From NCBI GenBank assembly GCA_036626215.1, contig JAZKSG010000001.1, positions 5,634 to 69,633 on the forward strand: a stretch of DNA of 64,000 nucleotides, in the 5' to 3' direction. This document shows positions 2,990 through 64,000 of the stretch, in pieces. Both the position numbers and the translations under genes were made by a program. Source of the DNA: Thermoplasmatota archaeon. Its GTDB lineage: Archaea > Thermoplasmatota > E2 > DHVEG-1. A model generated the notes under the pieces. The model was given only the letters and a program-made list of their open reading frames with translations. It did not search any database and was not told where the DNA came from. Numbering within the stretch: position 1 is the stretch's first letter; every line of letters starts with the position of its first letter.

Positions 2990-2992
2990 ATT

Positions 2993-3349: not shown

Positions 3350-3374
3350 CTACATCCTATAGTATTTACTCTAA

Positions 3375-4266: not shown

Positions 4267-4285
4267 AAAGATAAGGTGGAAATGA

Positions 4286-5794: not shown

Positions 5795-5832
5795 AAAAAG
5801 AGAAGGATATAAAATTGATTGCTTTTATTTTT

Positions 5833-6075: not shown

Positions 6076-6202
6076 AGAACAATGGAATGAAGATTCTATG
6101 TTTAATATTTTTGCTTTAAACTGATTTATTGGACAGTGGTAAAAAATATAAACATGTAGTGTATTGTGTTAACAATTAACCAGCTAAAGGAGGTTTATAG
6201 TT

Positions 6203-6517: not shown

Positions 6518-6612
6518 AAAGGATAGATAAAATATATCAATTTTAGCTAAATAACTTTTATAAACTAAGTATCATTATAGGGAAAGTAGTCTAAAAGGAG
6601 GAAAAAGCGAGG

Positions 6613-7689: not shown

Positions 7690-7704
7690 ATGAAAAAACA
7701 ATTC

Positions 7705-7735
7705 TCTTTTTTTACTTTTTTATAAGTTTTTTTAG
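7705..7735 (+). terminator. Oligo-T tracts (archaeal intrinsic terminator candidate) after the PKD-protein gene
   Basis: ctctttttttacttttttataagttttttt immediately 3' of the stop at 7689. Confidence 0.3.
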
Positions 7736-7788
7736 TTATATTTTTATTATGAAAATCTATCACTTCTTCACAGAGAGGATTAATTTTT

Positions 7789-32902: not shown

Positions 32903-32979
32903 TAATGTTCTATACTTATGAAGAAAGGTTTTATATATGGTTTTTTCTTACCATGCTTCAACTAAGGAGTGAAGTTCAT

Positions 32980-41921: not shown

Positions 41922-41946
41922 ACACCCCTTCATTTCGACTGGAAGA
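41922..41946 (-). promoter_or_regulatory. Origin recognition box (ORB), minus orientation
   Basis: Reverse complement reads TCTTCCAGTCGAAATGAAGGGGTGT. This matches the archaeal ORB consensus (TCCAGTGGAAA...GGGGT) with a terminal G-string. Confidence 0.65.
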
Positions 41947-42127
41947 GGATCAATGGCGGGGTATAGTTTCATATATAATATGTAAGACGTAAGTATAGAC
42001 AGCAACGTATTCGTTTAATGGTATTTCAATATTCTCATTTTTAAAAATATATTAATAGACAAATCTTTTTATTTTTTATTCAAAATCACAAAATTTGACA
42101 CTTTTTTGGCAACCCACACATTTTTCT

Positions 42128-42148
42128 TTTCCACATGAAACAAAGGCC
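42128..42148 (+). promoter_or_regulatory. mini-ORB-like element
   Basis: TTTCCACATGAAACAAAGGCC has the TCCA...GAAAC core but no G-string. Confidence 0.4.
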
Positions 42149-42264
42149 TATCCCATTATTGTTTTAACCAACTAATATTATAAACTAAAATCAATTTTTT
42201 AAGGAGTACCCTCCTAGAGATAGGTACTGAAAAATATAAACAAGTTTTTAATACCACCCTCCCA

Positions 42265-42288
42265 TTACACATGAAATGAAGGGGGAAT
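42265..42288 (+). promoter_or_regulatory. Origin recognition box (ORB), plus orientation, abutting orc1 start
   Basis: TTACACATGAAATGAAGGGGGAAT shares GAAATGAAGGGG exactly with the inverted ORB at 41922-41946. Confidence 0.6.
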
Positions 42289-48883: not shown

Positions 48884-49165
48884 TTATCCTACGTAATGCG
48901 AAACACCTTTATCGTCATCCTCTTCTAAGTTTTCTTTTGCCTTTAATATGTCTATAGCGAGTATGACATGTAAAGGAATAATTCTTTTCTTTCCGGATAA
49001 CTCGTCATGATTTTCATCAAGCTCCATTAAGACGGCATTTTCATCTATCCCAATGGATATAAAACCTCTAAATATTCCTTGAGTTTCTATTGTTTTGTTT
49101 CTTCCACCTAATGAGGTTATCTTATATTCTGATCCTTCGGTTAGTTCCTTTTCTGCTTTTTTCAT
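48884..49165 (-). CDS. Hypothetical small acidic protein
   Basis: 93 aa. ATGA overlap with the upstream wHTH gene points to an operon. Confidence 0.3.
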   Translation of the reverse strand: MKKAEKELTEGSEYKITSLGGRNKTIETQGIFRGFISIGIDENAVLMELDENHDELSGKKRIIPLHVILAIDILKAKENLEEDDDKGVSHYVG

Positions 49166-49608
49166 TCTACTTCGCTCCTCTGTTTTTCAATTAAATTTTG
49201 GAGATGTTCAACAGTTTTTCCATAATTCTCTATAGCTACTTTAATGTGCGCTTCAACAAAATTCCAAGCTTTTTCCAGATTTCCATATCTTAAACGATAT
49301 GCCTTCTTGTTCTGTTGTGTATTTTCATCGAAGACTTGTATCTCTTCAAGTATATCTAAACCCTTCAATTTGTTCAGATGTCGGTATACGGTGGGTTTTG
49401 ATGTATCAAGATTGGATGCTATCTCTTCTACGTACCATGCTTTGGAGGGATGGCTAAGAAAGAAATCATTAAAAATTTTGAAAGGAATATCTGGATTTGA
49501 TCCTTTAGAAAGGTATCCTATTTGTTCAAAAAATTTTTTAGCTACCTCTTCAGGGTCATCTTCTCCAACTAACGGCGTGTTGCTAACAACTTTGATTTCA
49601 AATCCCAT
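49162..49608 (-). CDS. Winged-helix (ArsR/TrmB-like) transcription regulator
   Basis: 148 aa. WYVEEIASNLDTSKPTVYRHLNKLKGLDILEE is HTH recognition helix-like. Confidence 0.4.
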   Translation of the reverse strand: MGFEIKVVSNTPLVGEDDPEEVAKKFFEQIGYLSKGSNPDIPFKIFNDFFLSHPSKAWYVEEIASNLDTSKPTVYRHLNKLKGLDILEEIQVFDENTQQNKKAYRLRYGNLEKAWNFVEAHIKVAIENYGKTVEHLQNLIEKQRSEVE

Positions 49609-49723: not shown

Positions 49724-51061
49724 TTATAAGACCGGTATATATTTGTCTATCTCCCATTTTGTGACTTGTGTTCTATATTTCTCCCATTCTTCATTTTTTA
49801 CATGAAGAAAATTATTGAATATGTGGCTGCCTAACGTCTCCTTCATAAAAGCACTTTCTTCCATCAGGGAAATGGCATGGCCTAGACTCTCCGGTAGTTG
49901 TTTAATACCATGCTTTTTTCTTTCACCTTCTGTTAATTCGTATATGTTTTCTTCAACTGGTTTAGGCGGCACAATTCTATTTTCAATTCCCTCTAAACCT
50001 GCAGAGAGCATTACTGCAAACTGTAGATAAGGGTTACCAGATAAATCCGGGCTTCTAAGTTCTACTCTTGCTCCTTTGCCTTTGCTTGTAGGGATACGAA
50101 TTAGAGCACTTCTGTTTCTTTTTGCCCAGGAGATATACGTTGGCGCCTCGTAACCAGGCACCAGTCTTTTATAAGAGTTTACTGTAGGATTGCAAATACA
50201 GGTTATTTCTTTTATATGTTTCAGCAAGCCCCCTATGAAAAATTTTGCTGTATCACTAAGCATATCTTCACTATCTGGATTGTAAAAACCGTTTTTCCTG
50301 TTAGAATCGAAGAGAGACATATGTGTATGCATACCAGATCCATTCAAACCAAAAATAGGTTTAGGCATAAAAGATGCATGGAGATTGTGTTTGTTTGCTA
50401 TCACCTTGGTAACGTATTTTAATGTTATCGTCCTGTCTGCTGTGGTTAACGCATCGGAATAACGGAAATTTATCTCATGTTGACCCTCAGCTACCTCATG
50501 GTGGGAGGTGTATGTCTGTATCCCAAGTTCATCCAAAGCAAGCGATATATCTGCTCTTACCCCCTCAGCTAAATCTCTATGAGAAAGTTCGAAATATCCT
50601 GCATGATCATTAGGTCTTAGAGTTGAAACACCATCCTCCTTTTTAAAAAGAAAAAACTCACATTCTGGACCAGTATTAAAGACATATCCTTTCTTCTCTG
50701 CTTTCTGCATAGTTCTTTCAAGAACATATTTAGAGTCACCTTCAAATCGCGAACCACTTGGATCAAAGATATCACAGTTTAATTTAGCAGTTTTTCTCTT
50801 TTCTATCTCCTCTGGAATTATTACAAAACTTTTAGGGTCTGGCTTAGCAATATAATCTGATTCTTCGATTGTGGCATATCCTGCTATTGAAGACCCATCG
50901 AAAGATATGCCTTCTTCTAAAGCCTCTTCTAATCTACTGTTAGGGATTACAATATTTTTTGGAAAACCAAGTATATCTACAAATTGTAGTCTAATAAAAT
51001 CAACTTTTTCTTGATTACAAACTTCTAAAACTTTTTCTTTGGTGCAACCACAGGATTCCAT
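49724..51061 (-). CDS. glnA: Glutamine synthetase type I
   Basis: 445 aa. GS beta-grasp N-terminus FVDILGFPK. Catalytic motifs MPKPIFGLNGSGMHTHMSLF and NPYLQFAVMLSAGLEGIE. RSPD lies upstream of the adenylylation-loop region. Confidence 0.9.
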   Translation of the reverse strand: MESCGCTKEKVLEVCNQEKVDFIRLQFVDILGFPKNIVIPNSRLEEALEEGISFDGSSIAGYATIEESDYIAKPDPKSFVIIPEEIEKRKTAKLNCDIFDPSGSRFEGDSKYVLERTMQKAEKKGYVFNTGPECEFFLFKKEDGVSTLRPNDHAGYFELSHRDLAEGVRADISLALDELGIQTYTSHHEVAEGQHEINFRYSDALTTADRTITLKYVTKVIANKHNLHASFMPKPIFGLNGSGMHTHMSLFDSNRKNGFYNPDSEDMLSDTAKFFIGGLLKHIKEITCICNPTVNSYKRLVPGYEAPTYISWAKRNRSALIRIPTSKGKGARVELRSPDLSGNPYLQFAVMLSAGLEGIENRIVPPKPVEENIYELTEGERKKHGIKQLPESLGHAISLMEESAFMKETLGSHIFNNFLHVKNEEWEKYRTQVTKWEIDKYIPVL

Positions 51062-51325
51062 CTTAAACCATTATCCTCCATGACTAAAAAACTTATAGTT
51101 TCACTTAAAAAACTTGGAACATTAATTGTAAACCAAATTTTCTTATTAAAACCTATTTAATTCTACAAAAATTGATAAAAATATTAGTAAAAATGTAGAA
51201 CCAGCAGTAGTTTTTTTATACATTTTAACTAAAATGTTGCAATAAAGTTTTAATAAGGATGTTTTATAAGGAGACCACTGAAATTATGAAAATTGAAACC
51301 TATTATTGGGAGGTTTTATAAAAAA

Positions 51326-52672
51326 ATGAATGCAGAAAACGTCAAATGTTTTATGGATGAGTGCTGTAAGAGAAAGAACCCTGGTCAGGAGGAATTCCAT
51401 CAGGCGGTGCGTGAAGTTGTAGAGAGTATTATGCCTTTTGTGGAAAAACATCCTAAATATAAAGAACATAAAATCTTAGAAAGAATAATTGAACCTGAAA
51501 GAGTTATTATGTTCCGTGTTCCATGGCTTGATGATAATGGCGAACCGCAGATAAACCGTGGTTATCGAATCGAGATGAACAGTGCGATAGGTCCATATAA
51601 AGGAGGGTTACGTTTTCATCCAACTGTTAACCTTAGCATTTTAAAATTCCTTGCTTTCGAACAGATTTTCAAAAACAGTCTTACCACCCTCCCGATGGGT
51701 GGCGGAAAAGGCGGGTCTGATTTTAATCCTAAAGGAAAGTCTGATAACGAAGTTATGAAGTTCTGTCAGAGTTTTATGACTGAACTCTGCCGTCATATTG
51801 GTCCGGATACTGATGTCCCAGCAGGAGATATAGGAGTTGGTGGACGTGAAGTAGGATATCTTTTTGGTCAATACAAAAGAATTAGAAACGAGTTCACTGG
51901 TGTTCTAACAGGTAAAGGACTTGGATGGGGTGGAAGCCTTATACGTCCGGAAGCAACAGGATATGGTTCAACATATTTTGCTCAGGAAATGTTGAAAACG
52001 CGTAACGAGAAAATAAAAGGAAAAACTGTAACCATCTCTGGATCTGGAAACGTAGCACAACATACCTGTGAAAAAGTTTTACAGTTAGGTGGAAAAGTAG
52101 TCACTCTATCTGACTCCTCAGGCATGATACATGATCCAGAGGGAATTGATAGAGAGAAACTTGATTTCGTGATGGAGCTTAAAAATGTTAAACGTGGCCG
52201 GATAAGAGAATATGCTGAAGAGTTTGATGACGTTACTTATGAGGATGGAAAAAGACCTTGGAACATTCCTTGTGACATAGCGTTCCCATCAGCCACTCAA
52301 AACGAGATAAGTGAAGATGATGCCAAGGCACTGGTTGATAATGGATGCATATGCGTATCAGAAGGAGCTAACATGCCTACAGTACCAGAGGGAATAGACG
52401 TATTCTTAGAAAACAAAATCCTTTACGGCCCTGGAAAAGCAGCTAACGCAGGCGGCGTATCAGTTAGCGGTCTTGAAATGTCTCAGAACAGTTTACATAT
52501 GAATTGGTCTAGGGAAGAAGTAGATAACAAACTCCAGAACATCATGAAATCCATACATGAGACATGTCTAAAATATGGTAAAGAAGATGGTTTTTGCAAC
52601 TATGCAAAAGGGGCCAACATCGGTGGGTTCGTAAAAGTTGCAGATGCAATGATAGACCAAGGACTCGTCTAA
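51326..52672 (+). CDS. gdhA: Glutamate dehydrogenase, large bacterial (E. coli GdhA-like, NADP-type) family
   Basis: ~448 aa from ATG 51326 after gggagg. The tracked ORF 51293 is an extension. Contains PGQEEFHQAVREV and the catalytic Lys loop LPMGGGKGGSDFNPKGKSD. Rossmann GSGNVAQH. Confidence 0.9.
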   Translation: MNAENVKCFMDECCKRKNPGQEEFHQAVREVVESIMPFVEKHPKYKEHKILERIIEPERVIMFRVPWLDDNGEPQINRGYRIEMNSAIGPYKGGLRFHPTVNLSILKFLAFEQIFKNSLTTLPMGGGKGGSDFNPKGKSDNEVMKFCQSFMTELCRHIGPDTDVPAGDIGVGGREVGYLFGQYKRIRNEFTGVLTGKGLGWGGSLIRPEATGYGSTYFAQEMLKTRNEKIKGKTVTISGSGNVAQHTCEKVLQLGGKVVTLSDSSGMIHDPEGIDREKLDFVMELKNVKRGRIREYAEEFDDVTYEDGKRPWNIPCDIAFPSATQNEISEDDAKALVDNGCICVSEGANMPTVPEGIDVFLENKILYGPGKAANAGGVSVSGLEMSQNSLHMNWSREEVDNKLQNIMKSIHETCLKYGKEDGFCNYAKGANIGGFVKVADAMIDQGLV

Positions 52673-52745
52673 AAAAACATTTTTTTTCTCTTTTTTTATT
52701 TTTTTGTGAAAAGAATAAAATACAGCAATTTTTTTATTTGGTTTT

Positions 52746-53783
52746 ATGGAACTTTTGGAAGATGATCTAAATCTTTACCTTCTTCGCTACCTAGTTTCCG
52801 GTGAAGGGGTTTCAGTTAATATTCGTTCTGTAGCACGTGAGCTTGATATTCATCGTGCTACTGCCAAAAGAAGGATTAGTTTTTTGTATGATAAAAAAAT
52901 CCTTAACCCTCCCTTTTATTCTTTTCCCCAGCTCTATAAGGAGTACCCTTTACTTATCTTGGTTAAAGCAGATATGCCTAGAACTCAAGAGGTTAAAGAT
53001 TTTTTAAAAGATGATTCTCATGTTTTTGCTGCTTTTTCTTGTATGGAAGGGCCGTATAATACTTTTTTAATGGAGTTTTTTGAAGATTTAAAATCATATC
53101 ATTCTTGGCGTGAACAGATTGTGGCGGATAAAAAAATTCCTACTAGGCATAATCGAGCGGCTGCTTCTGCCAATATTTTCAGTAATAATCTAACGTTCAA
53201 GTATGAACCTAATTGTTTTGTAAAAGAACTGAGGAAGGAATTTGATAGAGATGGTTTTGTTCAGATAGGTGATGTAAGGCTTGGATATGAAAAGTTTAGT
53301 ATTATGTATGATTTGACCCAGGGTAAACATCTTCAGAGAAATGATTCTTTTTTATCAAGAGAGTTGGGTGTGAATAGAAAAACAATCAAACATCGTGTTG
53401 GTACATTGCTTGATGCAGGTGTTATAGATCCTCCTAAATGTTTTTTTCCAAACTTGTTTATCCCTCCGACATATAACTTGGTTGTTTCTTTGATTGAGGT
53501 AAAATCAGGGGTTGATGATGTTAAAAAGTATATTATGGATAATAATAATATTTCTCGTGCGCAGGAAGCTAGCACTGGGCGGTATAACTTTTTGATTTTT
53601 TCTGCTTTTAAAACCATTGAACATTTTTTTGATACGGGTCGAGAACTAATTTCACGTTTTCCCAACGCCATAGGAGATATTTCTAATACTATTTTGTCTT
53701 CAAAGATGATTCATACTATCAAACCTCAGAAACTTTCTCTTGGTTGGATTGAGAGAAAGCTTTGGGAATTGAAACAAAAATAG
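52746..53783 (+). CDS. Tandem-duplicated Lrp/AsnC-like transcription regulator (two HTH + RAM-like units)
   Basis: 345 aa. Unit 1 HTH IRSVARELDIHRATAKRRISFL plus LLILVKADMP. Unit 2 HTH LSRELGVNRKTIKHRVGTLLDAGVI plus VVSLIEVKSG. Confidence 0.45.
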   Translation: MELLEDDLNLYLLRYLVSGEGVSVNIRSVARELDIHRATAKRRISFLYDKKILNPPFYSFPQLYKEYPLLILVKADMPRTQEVKDFLKDDSHVFAAFSCMEGPYNTFLMEFFEDLKSYHSWREQIVADKKIPTRHNRAAASANIFSNNLTFKYEPNCFVKELRKEFDRDGFVQIGDVRLGYEKFSIMYDLTQGKHLQRNDSFLSRELGVNRKTIKHRVGTLLDAGVIDPPKCFFPNLFIPPTYNLVVSLIEVKSGVDDVKKYIMDNNNISRAQEASTGRYNFLIFSAFKTIEHFFDTGRELISRFPNAIGDISNTILSSKMIHTIKPQKLSLGWIERKLWELKQK

Positions 53784-53924
53784 ACACCATAGAATATTTG
53801 TCCATTAAAAAGATACTTTTTTACCCAAGCTGTACATAGATTAAATATTTTTTTATAACCCAACTATATATATCACTTTAATAATGCGACGAAAAAATCA
53901 AAAACATAAGGAGCAATCTGAGAT

Positions 53925-55214
53925 ATGGTAGAAGAAGGATACAACCCATTTAAAATGGCACAAAAACAATTTGATAGAGTCGCAGAGAAACTAGAATTAG
54001 ACGACTCAGTAAGAGAATTTTTGAGAGAACCAATGAGAGAATATCATTTTTCTATACCTGTCAAGATGGATGATGGCAAAGTCAAAACTTTTAAAGGATT
54101 CAGAGTACAGCATAACGACGCCCGCGGCCCTTGTAAAGGAGGGATAAGATTTCACCCTCAGGAAACAATTGACACGGTTAGGGCATTGGCTATGTGGATG
54201 ACTTGGAAATGTGCAGTAATAGACATCCCTCTTGGAGGTGGGAAAGGAGGAGTTATATGTGATCCACATGATCTTTCGGAAGATGAACAGGAAAAACTGT
54301 GCAGAGGGTGGATCCGTCAGTTGTCACAAGACATTGGCCCAGTAAGAGATGTTCCAGCACCGGATGTAATGACCAATAGCCAACATATGCTTTGGATGAT
54401 GGATGAATATCAAGCAATCCATGGAGGACAATACCAGCCTGGAGTTATAACGGGTAAACCCGTTGCACAAGGCGGGTCTCTTGGAAGAAAAGAAGCTACC
54501 GGCTATGGGTTAGTATACATTTTAAGAGAATGTTTGAAGGAAATGGATATCGACATAAACAAGGCAACTGCATCAATACAGGGTTTTGGAAATGTGGCAC
54601 AACATGCCGCAGAATTATTCATAGATTTAGGGGGAACTGTAGTTTCCGTTTCTTGTTGGAATCAAAAAGACAGCAAGCCCTATTCCTTTTATAAAGAAGA
54701 CGGAATCGATTTGAAAGAATTATTAAAAATCACAGATCATTTCGGCACAATCGATAAAAAAGAAGCGGAAAAACTTGGGTATGAAGTTCTTCCGGGAGAA
54801 GACTGGATTAAACATGATGTAGATATTCTTATACCCGCTGCTTTGGAAAACGCTATAACAAAAGACAATGTGGACAAAATACAGCCAAGTGTAAAACTTA
54901 TCATATCTGGTGCAAACGGCCCTATAACTCCTGAAGCAGACGACACATTAAATGAGAAAGAAGTAGTAGTTATACCAGATTTTTTAGCTAACGCTGGAGG
55001 TGTAGTATGTAGTTATTTCGAACAAGTACAGAGCAATCAAAACTATTACTGGCCTAAAGAAGAAGTACTAGGAAAACTTGATAATAAAATGACAGATGCG
55101 TTCTACAAAGTATGGGAGTTATCTCAACGTAGAAAAATAAGAGTAAGCGATGCAGCTTATATGATCGCTATTTCAAGAGTGGCAGAATCCTGTCAGATTA
55201 GAGGATGGGTCTAA
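53925..55214 (+). CDS. gdhA: Glutamate dehydrogenase (archaeal ~420-aa type), paralog 2
   Basis: 429 aa. GFRVQHNDARGPCKGGIRFHP, IPLGGGKGGV, Rossmann QGFGNVAQHAA. Confidence 0.9.
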   Translation: MVEEGYNPFKMAQKQFDRVAEKLELDDSVREFLREPMREYHFSIPVKMDDGKVKTFKGFRVQHNDARGPCKGGIRFHPQETIDTVRALAMWMTWKCAVIDIPLGGGKGGVICDPHDLSEDEQEKLCRGWIRQLSQDIGPVRDVPAPDVMTNSQHMLWMMDEYQAIHGGQYQPGVITGKPVAQGGSLGRKEATGYGLVYILRECLKEMDIDINKATASIQGFGNVAQHAAELFIDLGGTVVSVSCWNQKDSKPYSFYKEDGIDLKELLKITDHFGTIDKKEAEKLGYEVLPGEDWIKHDVDILIPAALENAITKDNVDKIQPSVKLIISGANGPITPEADDTLNEKEVVVIPDFLANAGGVVCSYFEQVQSNQNYYWPKEEVLGKLDNKMTDAFYKVWELSQRRKIRVSDAAYMIAISRVAESCQIRGWV

Positions 55215-55235
55215 AAAGAGAATTATGAATATAAA

Positions 55236-58229
55236 ATGATAGAAGAAAATAAAGAAGAAAAAATTTTATCAAAAATTGAGGAGATTACAGGGATAAAACC
55301 CCATAAGGAAGAAGAGAGATATACAGATAAAACAGAAAAACTTAGAAAATACGAAATCGACAGCGTTCTAATCGTTTCTTCTTCCTATGATTATTTTCTT
55401 TTGGAAGAAGAGGGAAGATTAAGCAATCTCTTCTCGGAACTATATTCTCCTTCTGGAAAAAACCCTCCCAGTGTTTCACATGTCGAAACAGAGGAGAGTG
55501 CTCTTAAAAAACTCTCTGACAAAACCTTTGATTTAACAATTATTTTCAACAAACCTGAAGATATAGGGGTTCTCGATTTAGCTAAAAAGATTAGAGACCA
55601 TTCTAAATCCAAGATAGTTATATTAAACAACGATATCGAAAAAATCAGAAAAATATCAGAAGCAGATGAAGACAATCTAATCACAGAGTTTTTTACTTGG
55701 AATGGCGATGGGAAAGTAGTTTTAGGGATAGTTCAGCTAATAGAAGACTCAGTTAACTTAGAGAAAATCAAAAAAGGAGAAAAATGTAGATGCATTCTTC
55801 TAATAGAAGACTCGATACAACATTATTCTAACTATATAACATTGATATATGATGAAATTAGAGAATTTTTAGATGAGATAATAGATAAGAATTTAACTGA
55901 TAAACAAAAAGACATCCGTTTTGATAGGAGGCCTTTTGTTTTTCATGCTAAAGATCTTGACACATCTATCCATTTTTTTGAAAAATTCAAAGATGATTTA
56001 GTTTGTATAATAACTGACAACCATTTAGGCGATGCCGAAAATAGGGTTGAAAACGCAGGTGTAGAGTTTACCAAAAAAATAATTGATGAGGGCTATGATA
56101 TTCCTATAGCTATTCAGTCTTCGGAACCGATCCATGATTGTGATTTCCCAAGTAAAAAAATACAGTTTCTCTCTAAAAACTCAGCAAATCTAATCGGGAA
56201 ATTGAAAAGATTTATAGAGAAAAGCATAGAGCCAAAGAAAATCAGATATAAACCCAATGACGGCGAAGTTAAAGTTATGGACGATATATCTGATTTGCAG
56301 GATTTTTTACTGTTTGAAGATAGTTATTTGGTTGTAAATCTCGCTAAAAAAAATGTTTTTTCTAATTGGTTCAACTCTTTGGGTGAATTTGAGCTATCTG
56401 AAAAGTTTCGTTTCTTTGAGAACGGTTTTGAAAAACCTGATAAATTACAGAAAAATTTATTGGATGTTATAGAAAACTACAGATATTCTTTGAATCAGGT
56501 AGCTATTAAAAAATTTGAACGACGGGAAGATGAAGAAAAAACTAAGATTAGATGTATAGGCGATGGTGCATTGGGCGGTAAAGCTCGTGGTTTGGCTTTC
56601 CTCTCTAAAATTTTTTCTAAATATGTATCTGAAGATATGCTTCCTGGTCTTCGTGTTACGATTCCTCGTAGTATTGTTTTATCTACTGATGTTTTTGATT
56701 CTTTTTTAGAACGCAATGATTTGCTTGAAGAACCTCTCTTTGAGTTGTCTGATGAACGCATAGCTTCTAAGTTTATGAAATCAGACCTTCCTGCTATCGT
56801 CCTTGGTGATTTACGTTCTTTTGTTAGAAACACCAGGAAACCTTTGATCATCCGGTCGTCAGGCGTTCTCGAGGATTCTTTATTGCAGCCTTTTGCAGGT
56901 GTTTATGCCTCTATGCTTCTTCCAAATGAATCTTGGGAGACAGATCTTCGTTTCCAGGAGGCATGTAACGCCATTAAATATGTTTATGCTTCTACATATT
57001 TTGAAAGAGCTCGTAACTATGTCAGATCTACTCCTAAAAGTATAACCGATGAGAAGATGGGGGTGCTTATACAGGAGGTTGTAGGTAAAAAGTATGGAAC
57101 CTATTTTTATCCGGATGTTTCTGGGGTAGCAAAATCTTATAATTATTACCCCTCCGGTGATTGCAAACCAGAGGATGGAATTGTTTATCTGGCTTTGGGG
57201 TTAGGAAAATCAATTGTTGAAGGCGGGAGTAGTTTTTGTTTTTGCCCTGAAAAACCTAAAAAACCTTTGGCAGGAACGCCAAAAGATTTCATGAGATATT
57301 CTCAAAGAGATTTTTATGCCTTGAATCTTAGATCTGTTTATCGGATAGTAAACAAAAACGAAGAAAGTTCCTTAGATAAATTAGATCTTGATGTCGCAAA
57401 AAAACACGGTGTTTTAGATAAACTTGTATCTACCTATGATCCTCGAGACGACCGACTCTATCCAGGATATTCAAATGAGGGTCATCCTGTCTTAGATTTC
57501 AGTCCTATTGTAAAATATAATGAGATCCCTCTTTCCAAAGCAATGAAACTTTTACTAAATGTCTGCGAAATCATTTTAGGTTATCCTGTAGAGATAGAGT
57601 TTGCAGTTAACTTATTTAAAGAAAAAGACAAACCCGCAGAGCTAACAATTCTACAGATTAGAAACATGCGCCCCCCTGGAGAATCACCAACATTATCAAA
57701 TAAAGATTTAAAATCCAACGATGTTTTGTGTTATAGTAAACACGCTTTGGGTAATGGAGTCATAAAAAATATTAAAGACATAGTATTTGTTAAATCAGAA
57801 AAATATGATATGTCGAATTCAATGCAGGTTGTAGACCAAGTCAAAAAAATTAACAGAAAACTCATGGATGAGGACAAACCTTACATCCTTGCTGGACCCG
57901 GGCGTTGGGGGTCAGCAGACCAATGGCTTGGAATACCTGTAGCGTGGGGAGATATAGCAGGCGCAAAAGTAATAATAGAGACGCCTTTTGAAAGAAGATC
58001 TATAGATTTCTCCCAAGGGTCACACTTTTTCCATGATATGCTTTCCTCTAACGTTGCATATCTAAAAACTGAAAAAGGAGAAGGAAACCTTGATTGGAAT
58101 CTGCTAAATTCGTTTCAGACTGTTGACGAAATAGGGGAGATAAAACATGTAAAAACCCCCTATCCTTTAGAGGTCGTAGTTGATGGAAAAAATGGAAAAG
58201 CAGTTATTAAAAAAGATAAAGAAAAATAA
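55236..58229 (+). CDS. Multidomain protein: N-terminal receiver-like repeats + PEP synthase N-terminal-type ATP-grasp (PPDK_N) domain + conserved C-terminal module
   Basis: 997 aa. The core aligns by eye with the ppsA N-domain in this window: IGDGALGGKARGLAFL ~ VGGKNASLGEM; LIIRSSGVLEDS ~ VAVRSSATAEDL; LIQEVVG...DVSGVAKS; IEFAV...LQIRNMR ~ DIEWAK...VQARPE. It lacks the GGRTCHAAI swivel motif and instead has GPGRWGS...GDI...SQGSHFFHD. The N-terminal 430 aa contain two CheY-like alpha/beta stretches (DSVLIVSSSYD..., CRCILLIEDS...). Confidence 0.55.
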   Translation: MIEENKEEKILSKIEEITGIKPHKEEERYTDKTEKLRKYEIDSVLIVSSSYDYFLLEEEGRLSNLFSELYSPSGKNPPSVSHVETEESALKKLSDKTFDLTIIFNKPEDIGVLDLAKKIRDHSKSKIVILNNDIEKIRKISEADEDNLITEFFTWNGDGKVVLGIVQLIEDSVNLEKIKKGEKCRCILLIEDSIQHYSNYITLIYDEIREFLDEIIDKNLTDKQKDIRFDRRPFVFHAKDLDTSIHFFEKFKDDLVCIITDNHLGDAENRVENAGVEFTKKIIDEGYDIPIAIQSSEPIHDCDFPSKKIQFLSKNSANLIGKLKRFIEKSIEPKKIRYKPNDGEVKVMDDISDLQDFLLFEDSYLVVNLAKKNVFSNWFNSLGEFELSEKFRFFENGFEKPDKLQKNLLDVIENYRYSLNQVAIKKFERREDEEKTKIRCIGDGALGGKARGLAFLSKIFSKYVSEDMLPGLRVTIPRSIVLSTDVFDSFLERNDLLEEPLFELSDERIASKFMKSDLPAIVLGDLRSFVRNTRKPLIIRSSGVLEDSLLQPFAGVYASMLLPNESWETDLRFQEACNAIKYVYASTYFERARNYVRSTPKSITDEKMGVLIQEVVGKKYGTYFYPDVSGVAKSYNYYPSGDCKPEDGIVYLALGLGKSIVEGGSSFCFCPEKPKKPLAGTPKDFMRYSQRDFYALNLRSVYRIVNKNEESSLDKLDLDVAKKHGVLDKLVSTYDPRDDRLYPGYSNEGHPVLDFSPIVKYNEIPLSKAMKLLLNVCEIILGYPVEIEFAVNLFKEKDKPAELTILQIRNMRPPGESPTLSNKDLKSNDVLCYSKHALGNGVIKNIKDIVFVKSEKYDMSNSMQVVDQVKKINRKLMDEDKPYILAGPGRWGSADQWLGIPVAWGDIAGAKVIIETPFERRSIDFSQGSHFFHDMLSSNVAYLKTEKGEGNLDWNLLNSFQTVDEIGEIKHVKTPYPLEVVVDGKNGKAVIKKDKEK

Positions 58230-58249
58230 TGAAGGCGGACAATTAAAAA

Positions 58250-61200
58250 ATGAATGATCGAAATAAAGAATTTGAAAACATAAAGAACAAACTTGATAAA
58301 CAAGTCCCTGAAGCGTTGCAAGAGAGAGTAAAAGAACTTAATTGCCTGTATGGTCTTACTAATATAGTTAAAGATAAATCTCTGTCTAAAGATGAGGCTT
58401 TGCAGAAAATAGTTGATTTAATTCCTCCTTCTTGGCAGTATCCAGACATAACTTGTGCGCGAATAAAATTAAAAGATGAGGGAGTGTATAAAACAGATAA
58501 TTTCAGGGAGACGAAATGGAGTCAAATCAGCAATATTTTTTCTGACGACAAAAAAATTGGTACACTTGAAGTATATTATCTTGAAGAAAAACCAAAGTTA
58601 GATGAAGGTCCTTTCCTTAAGGAGGAAAGATGGTTAATTGATGCTATAGCAGACTTAATTGGAAAATATATTGGTGAAATACAGATAAAGGAAGAATTGA
58701 AGCAGCATAAGGAAAAACTTGACCAGGTTGAAAAAACAGGACAAAAATTTGAAGAAGCCGAGATCACAGACAAGAAGCATGATTGGGAGGTAATTATTGA
58801 TCTTCTGATTAAAACCGACCCTCGTATGCTTCTTCGTATAACCCGGAAGATGGTATATCATCTGTATCGTTTTGAAAATGAAAAAATCAACAATCTTTTA
58901 AGTACTGTTTGTCCAGTGGATAGAGATTCTTCTTCAACCCAATGGTGCGGTATTAACATGCCTAACCCCCGTCAAAATATAGAATCTCTCAAAAGAGTCC
59001 AACAGCAGGTTTTTGAATTAGCAAAAGAATGTTTTACTCCAGAAGAACTCTCTCGGCTATTCCATTACTATATTAAACAAGATAAAGTACGTCCATTGTT
59101 GCTGACATCTCAGAAACACGGAGTCCCTCTTGTTGAAATAACAAATGAGCTTATTCGTTTCTTTGACAAAGCTGATGAGGAAATTGAGATTTCACCTGAA
59201 GATCGCCTGAGTATTACCACGGCGTTAATCAGGCGTTTTTTTACGGATAGACTTGATTATGTTAATGTCGCTAAACAGTTTATCAATGTTGAAGATTTTA
59301 TTCCTCTTCTGAAACATGTGGTGGGCCCTGCGCAGGGAGCTGGCAAGTTAGGAGGTAAAACCTCTGGAGTATATTTGGCTGAGAAAATTATAAAAGAGGA
59401 AATGGAAACGAAGGATGTGCTTAGCGACATTGCCTTCCCGCGTAGTTGGTATCTCACCTCTGATGCAATACATAATTTTATACATTATAACGATCTCGAT
59501 GAAGTATTTCATCACAAATATTTGGATCCAGAAGAAATACGACAAGAGCAGGTTTTTTTAGAGCAAATCTTTAAAAACGCTGTTTTTCCACCAGAAATCG
59601 TGGAAAACCTAAGAAAAATCATCCATGATATCGACGATAAACCTATAATCGTCCGCTCATCAAGTTTACTAGAAGATAGCTTCGGAGCGGCTTTCAGTGG
59701 AAAATATAAAAGTCTGTTTGTCCCTAACACAGGGTCAGAAGAAGAAAGACTTTATGCTTTAATGGATGCAATAGCTGAGGTTTATGCCTCTACTTTTGGC
59801 CCTGATCCTATAGAGTATCGACGGGAGAGAGGCTTACTTGATTTCAGTGAAGAAATGGGAGTTCTCATACAGGAAGTAGTTGGTATCAAGGTCGGCAAGT
59901 ATTATATGCCGATGTTTGGAGGAGTAGCTTTCAGCAGAAACGAATTCCGATGGTCTCCACGGATAAGAAGAGAAGACGGCGTAATTCGTTTGGTACCTGG
60001 TCTTGGAACCAGAGCTGTAGACCGGGTAAGTAATGATTACCCTATCCTGGTTTCACCGAGCAGACCCGAGCTACAGGTAAATACTTTGGTTGAAGAAAGA
60101 ATCCGTTACTCACCTCATTATATGGACGTTATTAATCTTGAATCTGGAGCAATAGAAACGATAGATGCAATAGAGTTATTCAAACAACACCCAGACGAAT
60201 TTCCGAAATTAAATCAGATTATTTCAATAAATAAAGATGGGCGCTTAGCTAAACCATCTGGCCTGTTGCTCAATCCTGAAGAAGAGGATATGGTGGTAAC
60301 ATTCTCAAATTTATTTGATAAAACAGATTTTCTTGAAAAAATAGAGACACTGCTTGATATATTAGAGGAAAACATTGGCACACCTGTCGATGTAGAATTT
60401 GCATCTGATGGAGAAAAACTTTATTTCCTTCAATGTAGACCCCAGAGTCAATCTTTGGATATCGAACGTGTACCTATACCTAAAAACATTCCAGATAAGA
60501 GAAAACTGTTCTCCTCAGATAAATATGTTACAACTGCTCAAATAGAAAACATCGAATACATTGTATATGTGAAACCGGAGGGATATGCAAATCTACAAGA
60601 TAGGGAGGAAATGCAAAAGATTGCGACTATTGTAAACCGTCTAAACGCTAAACTCCCTAAGAGAAAATTTATTTTAATGGGTCCTGGACGTTGGGGTAGC
60701 CGTGGCGACATTAAATTGGGTGTTCCAGTTAAATATGGAGACATAAACAACACTTCTCTCTTGGTAGAAGTTGCAAGAGAAAAAGGAGATTATACACCAG
60801 AACTTTCCTTTGGAACACATTTCTTCCAGGATCTCGTAGAAGCAGATATAAAATATCTGCCATTATATCCCGATCATCCTAACAACTTGTTCAACGAAAA
60901 ATTGTTATTAGATGCAGAGAACAAACTTTCGGAGATAACTCCATCTTTCAAAGATTATGAAGAGGTAGTAAAAATAGTTAAAGTATCTGACCTAGTTGAT
61001 GGCGGAACTTTGTCTGTGATTATGGATGGAGAAGCCGGAAAGGCATTAGCCTTCCTTAAACCTCCTGATCACTGGAGTTGGAGGATGCAACAAGTAAAAA
61101 AAATAGCGGATGATCTAGACCCTGAAGTTTACTCTATAGATTCATTATATCTGGTTGGGAGTACTAAAGATGGTAGCGCTGGTCCAGGTAGTGACATAGA

Positions 61201-61444
61201 TTTAATCGTACATTTCTCAGGAAACGAAGAACAAAAAGAGAAACTTTTAGCTTGGTTTGACAAATGGAATAAAAAACTAGAAAAAGAAAACCAAGAAAGA
61301 ACAGGTATGAAAACCAAAGATATGTTAGATGTACACATAATTACAGATGAAGACATAAAAAACAAAACTTCTTGGGCGACACATATAACATCAAGATACA
61401 AATCAGTTAGAGAGATACCAATAAAAAAGGATGAAAAGAATTAA
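58250..61444 (+). CDS. Multidomain protein: N-terminal sensor-like domain + PPDK_N ATP-grasp domain + conserved C-terminal module + Pol-beta-type nucleotidyltransferase domain
   Basis: 1064 aa. Paralog of 55236-58229 across the ATP-grasp (GAGKLGGKTSGVYLA, IIVRSSSLLEDSFGAAFSG, VLIQEVVG, VEFASDGEKLYFLQCRP) and the C-module (GPGRWGSRGDIKLGVPVKYGDI...SFGTHFFQD). C-terminus YLVGSTKDGSAGPGSDIDLIVHF matches the GS-x(9-13)-DxD nucleotidyltransferase signature. Confidence 0.55.
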   Translation: MNDRNKEFENIKNKLDKQVPEALQERVKELNCLYGLTNIVKDKSLSKDEALQKIVDLIPPSWQYPDITCARIKLKDEGVYKTDNFRETKWSQISNIFSDDKKIGTLEVYYLEEKPKLDEGPFLKEERWLIDAIADLIGKYIGEIQIKEELKQHKEKLDQVEKTGQKFEEAEITDKKHDWEVIIDLLIKTDPRMLLRITRKMVYHLYRFENEKINNLLSTVCPVDRDSSSTQWCGINMPNPRQNIESLKRVQQQVFELAKECFTPEELSRLFHYYIKQDKVRPLLLTSQKHGVPLVEITNELIRFFDKADEEIEISPEDRLSITTALIRRFFTDRLDYVNVAKQFINVEDFIPLLKHVVGPAQGAGKLGGKTSGVYLAEKIIKEEMETKDVLSDIAFPRSWYLTSDAIHNFIHYNDLDEVFHHKYLDPEEIRQEQVFLEQIFKNAVFPPEIVENLRKIIHDIDDKPIIVRSSSLLEDSFGAAFSGKYKSLFVPNTGSEEERLYALMDAIAEVYASTFGPDPIEYRRERGLLDFSEEMGVLIQEVVGIKVGKYYMPMFGGVAFSRNEFRWSPRIRREDGVIRLVPGLGTRAVDRVSNDYPILVSPSRPELQVNTLVEERIRYSPHYMDVINLESGAIETIDAIELFKQHPDEFPKLNQIISINKDGRLAKPSGLLLNPEEEDMVVTFSNLFDKTDFLEKIETLLDILEENIGTPVDVEFASDGEKLYFLQCRPQSQSLDIERVPIPKNIPDKRKLFSSDKYVTTAQIENIEYIVYVKPEGYANLQDREEMQKIATIVNRLNAKLPKRKFILMGPGRWGSRGDIKLGVPVKYGDINNTSLLVEVAREKGDYTPELSFGTHFFQDLVEADIKYLPLYPDHPNNLFNEKLLLDAENKLSEITPSFKDYEEVVKIVKVSDLVDGGTLSVIMDGEAGKALAFLKPPDHWSWRMQQVKKIADDLDPEVYSIDSLYLVGSTKDGSAGPGSDIDLIVHFSGNEEQKEKLLAWFDKWNKKLEKENQERTGMKTKDMLDVHIITDEDIKNKTSWATHITSRYKSVREIPIKKDEKN

Positions 61445-62295
61445 AGAGCTTTCTCCACCCTTTTTGCATCCTTGATATCGTCTGTATCGAACATTATAAA
61501 ACAGGCTTTACTTTTTTTGCATGCTCCGTTGAAAGAAAAAGCATCACCAATTCTCTGTTTCCACCTTCCAGTCATATCGGTTGATTCATGGACATGTCCA
61601 TGTAGTGTTAGAAGAGGCTGTTTTTTCTTGATAAAACGTTTTATGGCTATACTTCCAACGTGTACATCAACTGGTGCATGATCTACTTTTTTACCATCTA
61701 GATCTGCTCTATCAAGATAGGTTTGATAGGGAGGTGAATGAAATAAGAATATTGTTTTGTCTAACGGAGAGTTTTGAGAAATTTTCTCTAAATCTTTTTT
61801 TATAGTTGAATATCTTTTTTTATCAGAGGAAATCGACACAGTCCGTTTTCCCTCCTCAGGAGAAATAGCACCTACATCTACATGGCGCGACACATCATAT
61901 TTCTCCCAGTCTTTCAGACGGAAAGGAGTAGGAGGCACAAAAGAATAACCAGTTATATACAAACCATTGTGTCTAACCGTTTTTTCATTAACGTATTCTA
62001 TTAAACCATCATTATGAGCTTTTTTGAATACTTTTTCATATATGCGAGGGTCATCATTCCCCATAATCAAAAAAAATTTTATCCTGTTTTTACAGTTTTT
62101 TTTACATTCTCTAATTTTATCAAAAATATGTTTCTCTATAAACTCTTCCATGGTCATATTTTTAGGAGGTTTTAGAGGTAGAAGGTCGCCACCTAAAAAA
62201 ACACCATCTGGAGCATTTTTTATTATTTCTTGAAAAAAAACATTATATTTTTTTTGCTTTCCATGAAAATCTGTTGCAAATATGTATTTCAACAA
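61441..62295 (-). CDS. Calcineurin-like metallophosphoesterase
   Basis: 284 aa. ATDFHG, GGDLL, IMGNDD (GNHD-like), HSPP, and GHVHE motifs in canonical order. Its stop overlaps the stop of the convergent upstream gene (shared TTAA). Confidence 0.7.
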   Translation of the reverse strand: MLKYIFATDFHGKQKKYNVFFQEIIKNAPDGVFLGGDLLPLKPPKNMTMEEFIEKHIFDKIRECKKNCKNRIKFFLIMGNDDPRIYEKVFKKAHNDGLIEYVNEKTVRHNGLYITGYSFVPPTPFRLKDWEKYDVSRHVDVGAISPEEGKRTVSISSDKKRYSTIKKDLEKISQNSPLDKTIFLFHSPPYQTYLDRADLDGKKVDHAPVDVHVGSIAIKRFIKKKQPLLTLHGHVHESTDMTGRWKQRIGDAFSFNGACKKSKACFIMFDTDDIKDAKRVEKAL

Positions 62296-62434
62296 TATAA
62301 CCTCATCTAATTTCTATGGTTTCTCTCTATGTTTTATGGATAAAGAGATACATAGATAAAAGTTACCGGTTTTTTTACAAAAGCTTTATATCTATAGAAT
62401 TGAATCTTGAGGTATATCGGAAATAATATTTGAT

Positions 62435-63715
62435 TTGTATGGGGGAATTAGTATAGCGCAGACTTTTTATGAAAGTGTTTTAGAGCAGATTGACTCAATC
62501 GCTGAGAGAACGGATTTAGATAAAGGCATACATAAAAAAATCCGTCAACCTGAACGCGAGTTGACAGTTAGCATCCCGATTGAAACCGATGAAGGCGAAA
62601 TAGATGTTTTCACAGGTTACAGGGTACAGCATTCTAGTGCACGTGGGCCTTGTAAAGGAGGGATACGTTATCATCAGGATACTAACTTGGATGAAGTTAA
62701 AGCTTTAGCTACGTTGATGTCTTTGAAATGTGCTGTTGCAAATGTTCCTTATGGCGGAGCAAAAGGCGGTGTTACATGTGATCCTTCAAATTTATCAAAA
62801 AAAGAGATTCAACGTTTAACTAAACGTTATGCTACTGCGATATTGCCCATCATTGGTCCTCGTGCTGATATTCCGGCACCAGATGTTAACACTAATGCTG
62901 AAACCATGGGTTGGATTATGGATGCTATAAGTATGCATAGAGGCTCTACAGTTCTGGATATTGTTACAGGCAAACCTATTGATTTAGGAGGGTCTCTTGG
63001 CCGTAATGAGGCCACAGGGCGAGGCGTCATGCTTAACACCATGGAGATGTTAGATAAATTAAATAAAAACCCTAAGGAAACGAGTGTTGCTGTTCAAGGT
63101 TTTGGTAACGTAGGATCTATTGGTTCTGCTTTGCTTTATGGTGAAGACTGTCAAATCAATGCGGTTAGCGACGTCTCTGGCGGGTTGCACAATCCTAATG
63201 GTTTAGATATCCCTGATTTAATCAGATACATTAATTCTCAGCCTCGTCTGCCTCTATTAAAAAACTATGATCATGGTAAAAATGATGAGTTTATTTCTAA
63301 TGAGGAGCTTTTAGAGTTGGATGTGGATGTTTTGATACCTGCAGCTCTTGAAAACCAGATTCATAGCGATAATGCAGACGATATAAAAGCAGATATCATT
63401 GTTGAAGGTGCAAATGGGCCAGTTACTAAACAAGCTGATGAGATACTAAATGAAAAAGATGTTTATGTAGTTCCAGATATACTTGCTAACAGTGGAGGAG
63501 TAATAGTATCCTATTTTGAATGGGTACAAAGCATACAGTCATTTTTCTGGGATATCGACGAGGTAAACAAAAACCTTAGAGATATTATGTTAAAAAGTTT
63601 TGCAGATGTATGGAGCATCTCTCAAAAAGAAAAATCGTCTCTAAGAGATGCAGCTTTTATCGATGCCATACAGAAAATTTCGAGAGCTATAGAACTCAGA
63701 GGTATTTTTCCATAA
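62435..63715 (+). CDS. gdhA: Glutamate dehydrogenase, paralog 3
   Basis: 426 aa. GYRVQHSSARGPCKGGIRYH, VPYGGAKGGV, QGFGNVGS. Confidence 0.9.
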   Translation: MYGGISIAQTFYESVLEQIDSIAERTDLDKGIHKKIRQPERELTVSIPIETDEGEIDVFTGYRVQHSSARGPCKGGIRYHQDTNLDEVKALATLMSLKCAVANVPYGGAKGGVTCDPSNLSKKEIQRLTKRYATAILPIIGPRADIPAPDVNTNAETMGWIMDAISMHRGSTVLDIVTGKPIDLGGSLGRNEATGRGVMLNTMEMLDKLNKNPKETSVAVQGFGNVGSIGSALLYGEDCQINAVSDVSGGLHNPNGLDIPDLIRYINSQPRLPLLKNYDHGKNDEFISNEELLELDVDVLIPAALENQIHSDNADDIKADIIVEGANGPVTKQADEILNEKDVYVVPDILANSGGVIVSYFEWVQSIQSFFWDIDEVNKNLRDIMLKSFADVWSISQKEKSSLRDAAFIDAIQKISRAIELRGIFP

Positions 63716-63821: not shown

Positions 63822-64000
63822 ATGTATGAGATTGTTGATAAAAAGACATTGTCAGAAAACGTTAAGCAGATGAAAATAAAGGCGCCTATGGTGGCTCGGA
63901 AGGCTAAACCCGGGCAGTTTATCATCTTACGTATCGATGAAAAAGGGGAGCGTATCCCTCTTACGATTGCAGATTATGATGAGGATAGAGGCACCATAAC
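63822..64000 (+). CDS. FAD/NAD(P)-binding oxidoreductase subunit (PyrK/GltD-small-subunit/sulfide-dehydrogenase-beta-like), 5' partial
   Basis: MYEIVDKKTLSENVKQMKIKAPMVARKAKPGQFIILRIDEKGERIPLTIADYDEDRGTI is the typical N-terminus of ferredoxin-NADP-reductase-like electron-transfer subunits. Truncated by the window end. Confidence 0.5.
   Translation, partial: MYEIVDKKTLSENVKQMKIKAPMVARKAKPGQFIILRIDEKGERIPLTIADYDEDRGTI

Follow-up and report, generated by a model that had tools for sequence, protein, structure and literature searches.

Large ATP-grasp proteins encoded beside glutamate dehydrogenase genes in Archaea and Bacteria: a candidate signalling system at the glutamate node

Why should two proteins of about a thousand residues, each containing the PPDK_N ATP-grasp domain that is also present in phosphoenolpyruvate (PEP) synthase, be encoded among the glutamate dehydrogenase (GDH) genes of a Thermoplasmatota archaeon? 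The question is raised by a locus of about 14 kb (positions 49724-63715) in a stretch of 64,000 nt from a contig of this organism (the window, whose numbering is used throughout), which an earlier note, made from the letters without database searches, had described as a nitrogen-assimilation island. We assigned the genes from a listing of open reading frames (ORFs) and from Pfam and NCBIfam profile searches; glnA, three GDH genes, the two PPDK_N proteins (here called the giants, PPDK1 and PPDK2), a metallophosphoesterase gene and the start of an NfnA-like gene all lie at the coordinates given there. Glutamate dehydrogenase connects carbon with nitrogen metabolism, and if a small number of allosteric or FHA-type examples are set aside, we know of no dedicated prokaryotic GDH signalling system. 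A cluster of three GDH genes, taken alone, is composed of known kinds; the novelty lies in the association of the giants with GDH, and on balance we lean, with some reserve, towards the view that these proteins transduce signals in a non-canonical way and serve GDH specifically.

In the window the gene of one dehydrogenase, GDH2 (53925-55214, plus strand, 429 amino acids), is followed on the same strand by those of PPDK1 (55236-58229, 997 amino acids) and PPDK2 (58250-61444, 1064 amino acids). PPDK1 starts 21 nt past the GDH2 stop codon and PPDK2 20 nt past that of PPDK1, and since neither gap contains a T-run, the three genes are probably transcribed as one unit. Outside the window, PPDK1-like giants (31-35% identity over the full length) were found beside gdhA in ten bacterial loci, nine of Bacteroidota and one of Prolixibacteraceae, when the comparison was started from GDH1. 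Among the archaeal relatives GDH1 has a giant of its own in four loci and GDH3 in two (L081 and L082).

The converse sample was drawn from the side of the giants, by scanning metagenome contigs with an alignment of 18 of them, and comprises 80 loci. GDH genes lie within 1.2 kb of the giant in 35 of these (median gap 293 bp) and within 3 kb in 5 more. If a locus is considered informative when it has either a GDH gene within 3 kb, or none and at least 2 kb of flanking DNA on both sides, then 40 of the 57 informative loci have such a gene, and in 35 it is directly adjacent; with 1-2 GDH genes per genome of a few Mb, we roughly estimate that chance would place one within a few kb in about 1% of cases. 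GDH is also the commonest neighbour family (35 loci), followed by LuxR-type regulators with receiver (REC) and GerE domains (13), NuoE-like proteins (12), the OFOR beta subunit (9) and NuoF-like proteins (8). Finally, six representatives of the proteins that carry the C-terminal domain of the giants (see below) were looked up individually, and GDH adjoins four of them: L163 has a PAS-GerE regulator, a GDH2-type gene and a fused double giant; L164 the end of a GDH2-type gene and then a minimal giant; and L166 a giant, a LuxR regulator, GdhA, a ferredoxin and a sigma-54 activator. The fourth, L167 (an ENA contig, 1-8914, with a G+C content (GC) of 55%), has GDH3-, GDH1- and GDH2-type genes and then PPDK1- and PPDK2-type giants in tandem on one strand, and to judge from this composition and gene content is a distant organism carrying the same set. 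In the other two (L165 and L168) the contig ends at the giant or no more than about 60 nt away from it, leaving one flank unseen, and the only accompanying gene is a GerE-type regulator (REC+GerE in L165, GerE alone in L168).

The dehydrogenases linked to giants belong to at least four clades of two families: a GdhA clade at 73-79% identity, a paralogous GdhA clade at 58-63%, the GDH2 type and the GDH3 type. The arrangements vary as well, the genes being divergent or tandem and the giant upstream or downstream, with sizes of 580, 710, 1000, 1150-1540 or 1640 amino acids. The giant family thus has a preference for sites next to GDH, and the GDH genes concerned fall into four or more clades across Archaea and Bacteria; a linkage that spans so many clades, both orientations and several architectures argues for a functional tie. 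A literature search for a pairing of such proteins with GDH, or for the GDHs of this lineage, found nothing relevant, and going by that search the cross-domain association is previously unreported. It is the most informative feature of the locus and had been absent from the earlier note.

The giants themselves have a composite structure. Following PPDK1 from its N-terminus, one meets a pseudo-receiver that lacks the acidic pocket (residues 43-155, nt 55362-55700), a second receiver, REC2 (residues 186-315, nt 55791-56180), a helical linker, the PPDK_N ATP-grasp (residues 440-812, nt 56553-57671) and a novel C-terminal domain (residues 815-997, nt 57678-58226) with the motifs GPGRWGS and SQGSHFFHD. 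Pfam detects only PPDK_N in this protein, and its Response_reg match is below threshold; residues 186-315 nevertheless have a predicted CheY-like fold with the acidic pair, phospho-acceptor Asp, Ser and Lys of a receiver (E191 D192, D261, S295 S296 and K314), all of them invariant or nearly so in 51 orthologues. PPDK2 begins with a novel putative sensor domain set between long helices (residues 22-150, nt 58313-58699), continues through a helical region to the ATP-grasp (residues 367-740, nt 59348-60469; PPDK_N 190 bits; Foldseek match to rifampin phosphotransferase (RPH) at E 5e-9) and the same C-terminal domain as in PPDK1 (residues 745-940, nt 60482-61069; GPGRWGS and FGTHFFQD), and ends in a minimal nucleotidyltransferase of the MNT type (residues 945-1050, nt 61082-61399). 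The last of these scores 34.6 bits with NTP_transf_2 (PF01909; threshold 21), has G970 S971...D982 I983 D984 invariant in 51 sequences, and is matched by Foldseek to MNT structures with a probability of 0.99-1.0 (8xeh, 2rff). The description of these large proteins as signalling proteins, already proposed in the earlier note, is thereby given definite modules.

Neither giant can be taken for a PEP synthase or PPDK: of the three-domain set only PPDK_N is present, and the NCBIfam PEPS models reach 52-56 bits against cutoffs of 598-883. A true three-domain PEP synthase, with PPDK_N, PEP-utilizers and PEP-utilizers_C, is encoded elsewhere in the window (32845-35373, plus strand), so the giants are not the PEP synthase of the cell. 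From their conserved residues they are best regarded as a distinct family, in which an apparently catalytically intact ATP-grasp of the PEP-synthase/rifampin-phosphotransferase type is joined to a C-terminal domain of its own. Invariant across the archaeal and bacterial members are the REC2 residues, the ATP-grasp motifs GGK.RG, RSS...EDS, E.EF and LQ.R, and, in the shared C-terminal domain of about 180 amino acids, GPGRWG and G[ST]HFF. The C-terminal domain was found in 1,447 clusters (50% identity) at E<=1e-3 among 1.84 billion representative proteins; in the full-length ones it is preceded by an ATP-grasp-sized stretch of about 400 residues, confirmed as PPDK_N in the six looked up, and the proteins occur as minimal forms of about 580 amino acids, REC forms of about 1000 and double forms of 1500-1650. 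The putative sensor has no Pfam match at E<1 and a Foldseek resemblance to GAF that is high in probability (0.98-0.99) but weak in E value (0.36). It recurs at the N-terminus of bacterial giants in 1-3 copies, in the PAS-GerE regulator beside GDH in L163, and in L042, where it is fused to a probable histidine-kinase dimerisation (H-box) segment that we read by eye from the match sequence. When the N- and C-terminal parts of the giants were searched separately against Pfam at E<=1, nothing credible emerged, and a sequence search of the PDB with both giants gave no matches; two domains, the sensor and the C-terminal one, are defined here that match no Pfam or NCBIfam model.

The bacterial giants have in addition an obvious candidate partner. 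A LuxR-type REC+GerE regulator directly flanks the giant in the 13 loci counted above, and also in L165 and L166, and in L168 its place is taken by a GerE-only regulator; where the two genes stand in tandem they overlap or are 0-20 nt apart, which gives them the look of a cognate kinase-regulator pair. How such a system might operate can be sketched. The sensor domain would read a metabolite, and the ATP-grasp, in place of a HisKA/HATPase kinase, would take a phosphoryl group from ATP and load it in the manner of a dikinase, the acceptor being probably the invariant C-terminal-domain His. The group would then pass to receivers: REC2 of PPDK1 in the archaea, and the internal receiver and/or the flanking LuxR-type regulator in the bacteria. 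In bacteria the output would be an adjustment of GDH expression through the abutting regulator; in archaea it might be a covalent modification of GDH or glutamine synthetase (GS), the mark being written by the PPDK2 nucleotidyltransferase and erased by the metallophosphoesterase. The latter gene (61441-62295, minus strand, 284 amino acids) is convergent with PPDK2, their stops overlapping by 4 nt; its assignment holds (Metallophos 42.7 bits), and it is found at the same position in eight related loci. With three isoenzymes the cell could operate the glutamate/2-oxoglutarate/ammonia node both ways and on different cofactors, the direction in a peptide-degrading organism being probably mainly catabolic. 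This particular chemistry, in which ATP loads a His, receivers are fed and GDH or GS is reversibly modified, is a good deal more tentative than the general proposal, and we consider it rather unlikely in its details; enzymes that worked so would make up a new class in signal transduction.

Several observations weigh against a dedicated signalling system. The mechanism is read from domain content and gene neighbourhood. Phospho-His chemistry is a guess for the C-terminal domain, to which the fold searches assigned no fold: against the phospho-His swivel domain of the PEP-utilisers, Pfam gave no match at E<1 and hhalign a probability of 1.8%, and homology to that domain was rejected at this sensitivity. 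The AlphaFold2 models of the giants are of moderate confidence, with predicted local distance difference test (pLDDT) values of 71 and 77 (70.7 for PPDK2). In this window only GDH2 adjoins giants, the GDH1- and GDH3-linked giants of the relatives being absent, and 17 of the 57 informative loci have no GDH nearby; giants that lack the sensor domain are GDH-linked in 13 of 43. Many of the fetched loci are phylogenetically related, and the counts do not represent independent events. Neither a canonical histidine kinase nor an Hpt partner turned up, and the archaeal loci have no DNA-binding partner. Lastly, the minimal nucleotidyltransferase is a domain that toxin-antitoxin and defence systems typically have as well, and there are weak matches here to PADLOC candidate systems (PDC-S09 and PDC-S10).

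The best surviving alternative is that of the earlier note: an island for nitrogen assimilation, in which an acquired NADP-dependent GDH1 would be anabolic and GDH2 and GDH3 catabolic, all of them co-regulated by nitrogen through Lrp-like or NrpR-like regulators. Much of the description on which it was built is sound. The quoted GDH peptide motifs are all present in the translations, and the dehydrogenases do belong to two families: GDH1 is 32% identical to GDH2 and 30% to GDH3, and the latter two are about 40% identical to each other. Sister metagenome-assembled genomes (MAGs) hold separate orthologues of each at 65-80% identity, and the closest solved structures differ, being Thermococcus/Pyrococcus enzymes for GDH2 (1euz, E 2e-127) and Thermotoga ones for GDH3 (1b26 and 2tmg, E 1e-139). 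On these comparisons the three are old non-orthologous copies of two families, and not recent in-paralogues.

GDH1 is a bacterial-type GdhA of 448 amino acids (51326-52672, plus strand). Its ORF as called runs from a TTG at 51293 to 52672, but translation most probably begins with the ATG at 51326, because it is preceded by a GGGAGG ribosome-binding site and the starts of the orthologues align there. The protein scores 761 bits with the NADP-GdhA model PRK09414 (cutoff 536), contains the catalytic GGGKGG lysine motif, and matches the NADP-GDH structures of C. glutamicum and E. coli (5gud and 4fcc) at E 1e-174, its GSGNVA...SDSSG coenzyme motif aligning with that of 5gud; by motif and curated model its predicted cofactor is NADP. 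GDH2 and GDH3 (62435-63715, plus strand, 426 amino acids) have both ELFV domains and the short archaeal type as best NCBIfam model, but at 488 and 484 bits they do not reach the 750-bit cutoff of the archaeal GdhA equivalog NF040817, and can be classed, from their domains and their matches to solved hexameric GDHs, as full-length members of the ELFV GDH family outside that equivalog. GDH2 has an insertion after strand beta-B, VSVSCWNQKDSKPYSFY (54620-54670, residues ~233-249), that is kept in 10 orthologues with the clade pattern VSVSCW(D/N)QKD..YS(Y/F)Y. The sole solved GDH with an insertion of this type is the NAD-specific Peptoniphilus enzyme 2yfq (AIAEWDRNEGNYALY), in which, according to mutagenesis work, a Glu at the discriminating position excludes NADPH; GDH2 has a Cys there, and its cofactor cannot be called from the sequence. 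GDH3 retains the AVSDxxGG pattern of the Thermotoga enzyme. The supposed split between NADP- and NAD-dependent enzymes, for which the residues were inspected, is therefore clear for GDH1 only.

The horizontal origin of GDH1 must likewise be qualified. In a scan with one genome per species, the nearest sequences were those of Thermoplasmatota MAGs (74-78% identity), then those of Bacteroidota, Omnitrophota and Planctomycetota (73-79%), and in a neighbour-joining tree without bootstrap the Thermoplasmatota form one clade nested among these three bacterial groups. The window sequence has a long branch that joins the tree next to the main Thermoplasmatota clade and not within it, which we do not take as evidence of a separate transfer. 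GC and codon usage of GDH1 carry no signal of recent transfer, its GC of 0.41 being like that of GDH2 and GDH3. Given the lineage-wide clade, the conserved glnA-GDH1 synteny and the native composition, the transfer is ancient: GDH1 is a bacterial-type xenologue, gained before the lineage diversified and shared throughout it, rather than an acquisition of this genome. The term island is also misplaced. The order ABC transporter, small ORF, ArsR-type helix-turn-helix (HTH) gene, glnA (minus), GDH1 (plus)...GDH2-PPDK1-PPDK2-metallophosphoesterase (minus) is the same in at least 12 related contigs, which argues that the clustering is not due to chance, and the cluster is better described, on this synteny, as a vertically inherited core "glutamate node". 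The PPDK2 orthologues are 67-81% identical across many genomes; the closest named relatives by this protein are "Thermoplasmatales archaeon SG8-52-3" and "SG8-52-4", which we take to be sediment archaea of the Marine Benthic Group D (MBG-D) type.

Nor does the locus specify assimilation. Orthologues of GDH3 at 65-79% identity occur in many Thermoplasmata MAGs, and in relatives this gene is preceded by its own REC-PPDK_N giant (L081 and L082) and followed by NfnAB-like genes (L082). Likewise, the last 179 nt of the window (63822-64000, plus strand) are the first part of a gene, truncated by the window boundary, for an NfnA/PyrK-like FAD/NAD(P)-binding subunit: its 59 residues are 81% identical to the start of the 275-amino-acid NAD_binding_1/DHODB_Fe-S_bind protein of L082, whose gene is followed by a GltD-like Fer4_20/Pyr_redox_2 gene to make an NfnAB-like pair, much as had been supposed of this edge gene. 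Because of the GDH3-NfnAB linkage and the M32, M18 and C25 peptidases of the window, glutamate catabolism fits at least as well as assimilation, and we would argue from gene content that part of the cluster serves glutamate oxidation in peptide fermentation rather than ammonia assimilation. An NfnA-like gene lies also near gdhA, about 2 kb upstream of it, in fourteen Omnitrophota or Planctomycetota loci (L024, L031, L036, L039, L040, L046, L047, L049, L050, L052, L055, L061, L066 and L080), an arrangement that hints at a widespread linkage of GDH with NfnAB (NADPH) in which the giants have no part.

There remains the regulation on which co-ordinated assimilation would depend. The gene for glutamine synthetase (glnA, type I, 49724-51061, minus strand, 445 amino acids) encodes both domains (Gln-synt_N 92.8 bits, Gln-synt_C 435 bits) and passes the TIGR00653 cutoff (522 bits against 429). 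As the earlier note had seen, it diverges from GDH1 across a shared AT-rich spacer (51062-51325), of 264 bp and 22.7% GC as against 36% in the window. In an alignment of the glnA-GDH1 spacers of 5 genomes there is a single long conserved block, GCAATAAAGTTTTAATAAGG...TT.ATA.GG..GACCAC (51239-51278, plus strand), which, because it resembles the archaeal consensus, is probably the B recognition element (BRE)/TATA box plus initiator or operator of the GDH1 promoter. An AT-rich TATA-like block is seen on the glnA side as well. The sequence that the earlier note had given as the best partial palindrome, cTTGGaacattaattgtaaaCCAAa, does exist, but at 51113-51137 instead of 51134-51158, 21 nt away; it overlaps the glnA-side TATA-like block, is not kept in the four related spacers, and was rejected as an operator. 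The same note had found no NrpR-type operator between the two genes, and GGAA-N6-TTCC has in fact 0 matches in the whole 64-kb window, where 1.46 would be expected by chance.

Directly past GDH1 there is a T-run, resembling a terminator, and then HTH345 (52746-53783, plus strand, 345 amino acids), the gene that had been read as a tandem Lrp-like regulator. It is an internally duplicated HTH protein, the halves of which align at E 3e-12; its HTH_24 match (20.8 bits) falls under the 21.9 cutoff, LysM scores 19 bits against 180, and the Pfam search found no AsnC_trans_reg (RAM) domain, so that we rejected it as an Lrp/AsnC regulator. No homologue is present in the related loci, in which the GDH1-GDH2 spacer has unrelated small genes, and HTH345 is to all appearance specific to this genome and lies outside the conserved system. 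Among the conserved genes, the stronger regulator candidate is the ArsR-type winged-HTH protein of 148 amino acids (49162-49608, minus strand; HTH_20 30.4 bits, HTH_5 27 bits), encoded directly downstream of glnA and, at 75-82% identity, always adjoining it in eight related loci. With it goes an ORF of 93 amino acids without a Pfam family (48884-49165, minus strand), the start of which overlaps the ArsR-type stop by 4 nt and which has counterparts of 50-64% identity, identically placed, in 7 Thermoplasmatota loci of relatives. Both genes lie outside the coordinates of the earlier note and were absent from it.

In sum, an NADP-type GDH1 nested among bacterial sequences, a divergent spacer with one strongly conserved promoter block and the presence of HTH genes all favour an assimilation island. 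The transfer was ancient and lineage-wide with native composition, however, HTH345 is unique to this genome, the 64 kb contain no NrpR operator and the palindrome is not conserved, while the peptidases and NfnAB point to catabolism; and the conserved giants, which occupy 6.2 of the 14 kb, are left unexplained. We regard this explanation as possible but unlikely.

Less likely again is that the giants are metabolic enzymes, small-molecule dikinases or ligases comparable to rifampin phosphotransferase, phenylphosphate synthase, HpeI or PigC-like proteins, acting on a metabolite of the glutamate/2-oxoglutarate branch; the receivers would then only tune them, and the linkage to GDH would reflect a shared pathway. 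One could cite for this the weak NCBIfam matches to PigC and RedH, and the redox and 2-oxoacid neighbours (NuoE/F-like, OFOR beta and GltD-like) of some bacterial loci. Yet neither Pfam nor hhalign recognises a substrate-binding or swivel domain in them, and no further pathway enzymes are conserved with the giants, whereas the sensor, receiver and nucleotidyltransferase modules and the tight LuxR-type pairing are hallmarks of signalling.

An explanation that we find distinctly improbable would detach PPDK2 from GDH altogether, its nucleotidyltransferase and the metallophosphoesterase being the maker and breaker of a second messenger, or a toxin-antitoxin or defence module, in a GDH context that is coincidental. 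The MNT-like fold (8xeh, 2rff), a weak NCBIfam phosphodiesterase match and weak PADLOC matches (PDC-S09 for the nucleotidyltransferase, 1.6e-5; PDC-S10 for the phosphoesterase, 2.9e-8) all lend it some colour, but there is no HEPN partner at the locus, the nucleotidyltransferase forms one chain with 940 residues of sensor and ATP-grasp, in a protein whose conservation across many genomes (67-81%) is not what one sees in defence genes, which evolve fast, its gene keeps a stable place beside GDH2 and PPDK1, and mobile-element signatures are lacking in a region of native composition. Since the PADLOC matches are only weak and generic, the reading as a defence system was rejected. Weakest of all, and hardly to be credited, is a neighbourhood that is a mere historical accident, one ancestral gdh-giant pair having spread by descent and transfer: the GDH1-linked archaeal giants are nearer to the bacterial giants (41-42% identity) than to PPDK1 (32-34%), which suggests co-transfer of gdhA and giant, and many sampled loci are related, but the linkage takes in four or more GDH clades, from two families, in varied orientations and architectures, and an adjacency retained through so many rearrangements argues for selection.

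The remainder of the window is in keeping with its lineage. It encodes three peptidases (an M32 carboxypeptidase at 4286-5794, an M18 aminopeptidase at 7789-9150 and a C25 gingipain-like protease at 44516-46537), a set that fits an archaeon living on peptides, together with Cdc48, AglB and geranylgeranyl reductases. A probable replication origin is marked by ORB-like repeats at 41925-42284 (TTCCACATGAAACAAAGG, TTACACATGAAATGAAGG and an inverted copy with the reverse complement TTCCAGTCGAAATGAAGGGG), within the 0.9-kb spacer before orc1/cdc6 (42292-43554). Two plus-strand ORFs, of 744 amino acids (22736-24970) and 356 amino acids (30382-31452), have no Pfam family at E<=0.001, and there are no tRNA genes in the 64 kb.

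A signalling system dedicated to GDH, to return to the reading that we prefer, would be a testable candidate for control of the glutamate node in uncultured peptide-fermenting archaea and anaerobic Bacteroidota. Its main recommendation is that in more than 100 related loci, from two domains of life, ATP-grasp signalling giants stay beside GDH genes through many rearrangements; the simpler story of an island made by recent transfer is thereby corrected.

It remains to place the proposed system among those already known. The archaeal glnA promoter context recalls the control by NrpR and 2-oxoglutarate in methanogens, but where these have GGAA-N6-TTCC the window has none, and the conserved footprint is instead a BRE/TATA element with a GACCAC block. 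Dedicated GDH regulators do exist: the GdhA/GdhB hetero-complex of Thermus thermophilus (3aoe) with its APRT-like subunit, and the FHA proteins GarA and OdhI. As in the cases considered here, extra proteins encoded with GDH isoenzymes control the activity, and multiple paralogues act together; the APRT-like and FHA proteins, however, are small, allosteric and do not use ATP, and they have no sequence or domain kinship to the giants.

With PEP synthase, PPDK and rifampin phosphotransferase the giants share an ATP-grasp that possesses all of the usual nucleotide-binding motifs, their best structural matches (RPH 5hv3 and 5hv6, HpeI and PPDK), and an invariant His in the downstream domain that could be a phospho-carrier. 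They differ in lacking the PEP-utilisers swivel and any PEP/pyruvate or substrate domain, for which they have their unique C-terminal domain, and in bearing receiver, sensor and nucleotidyltransferase modules. PPDK1 resembles PleD (REC-REC'-GGDEF), its top Foldseek match, in having a tandem receiver pair with one degenerate member ahead of the enzymatic part, and both the conserved Asp/Ser/Lys set and the operon-like pairs of bacterial giants with LuxR-type REC+GerE proteins are reminiscent of response regulators and hybrid two-component kinases. Where those proteins have GGDEF or HisKA/HATPase as output or kinase module, however, the giants have an ATP-grasp; no Hpt domain or canonical kinase was found with them, and Response_reg is sub-threshold in PPDK1.

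A further parallel is with GlnE and GlnD, the bacterial control of nitrogen assimilation by covalent modification, in which GS is adenylylated and deadenylylated. PPDK2 too joins a nucleotidyltransferase of the polymerase-beta superfamily to sensory parts, its gene lies among those of GS and GDH, and a nearby hydrolase could reverse the mark by the same logic as the deadenylylation of GS. The PPDK2 domain is, on the other hand, a minimal one of the MNT type (PF01909) and not that of GlnE or GlnD, and the system of the giants is found in archaea, with GDH and not GS as the linked enzyme. If the proposal is correct, it would represent a GDH-dedicated counterpart of the GlnD/GlnE cascade, common to Archaea and Bacteroidota, and could account for old reports that the GDH of Bacteroides is reversibly inactivated in vivo by ammonia.

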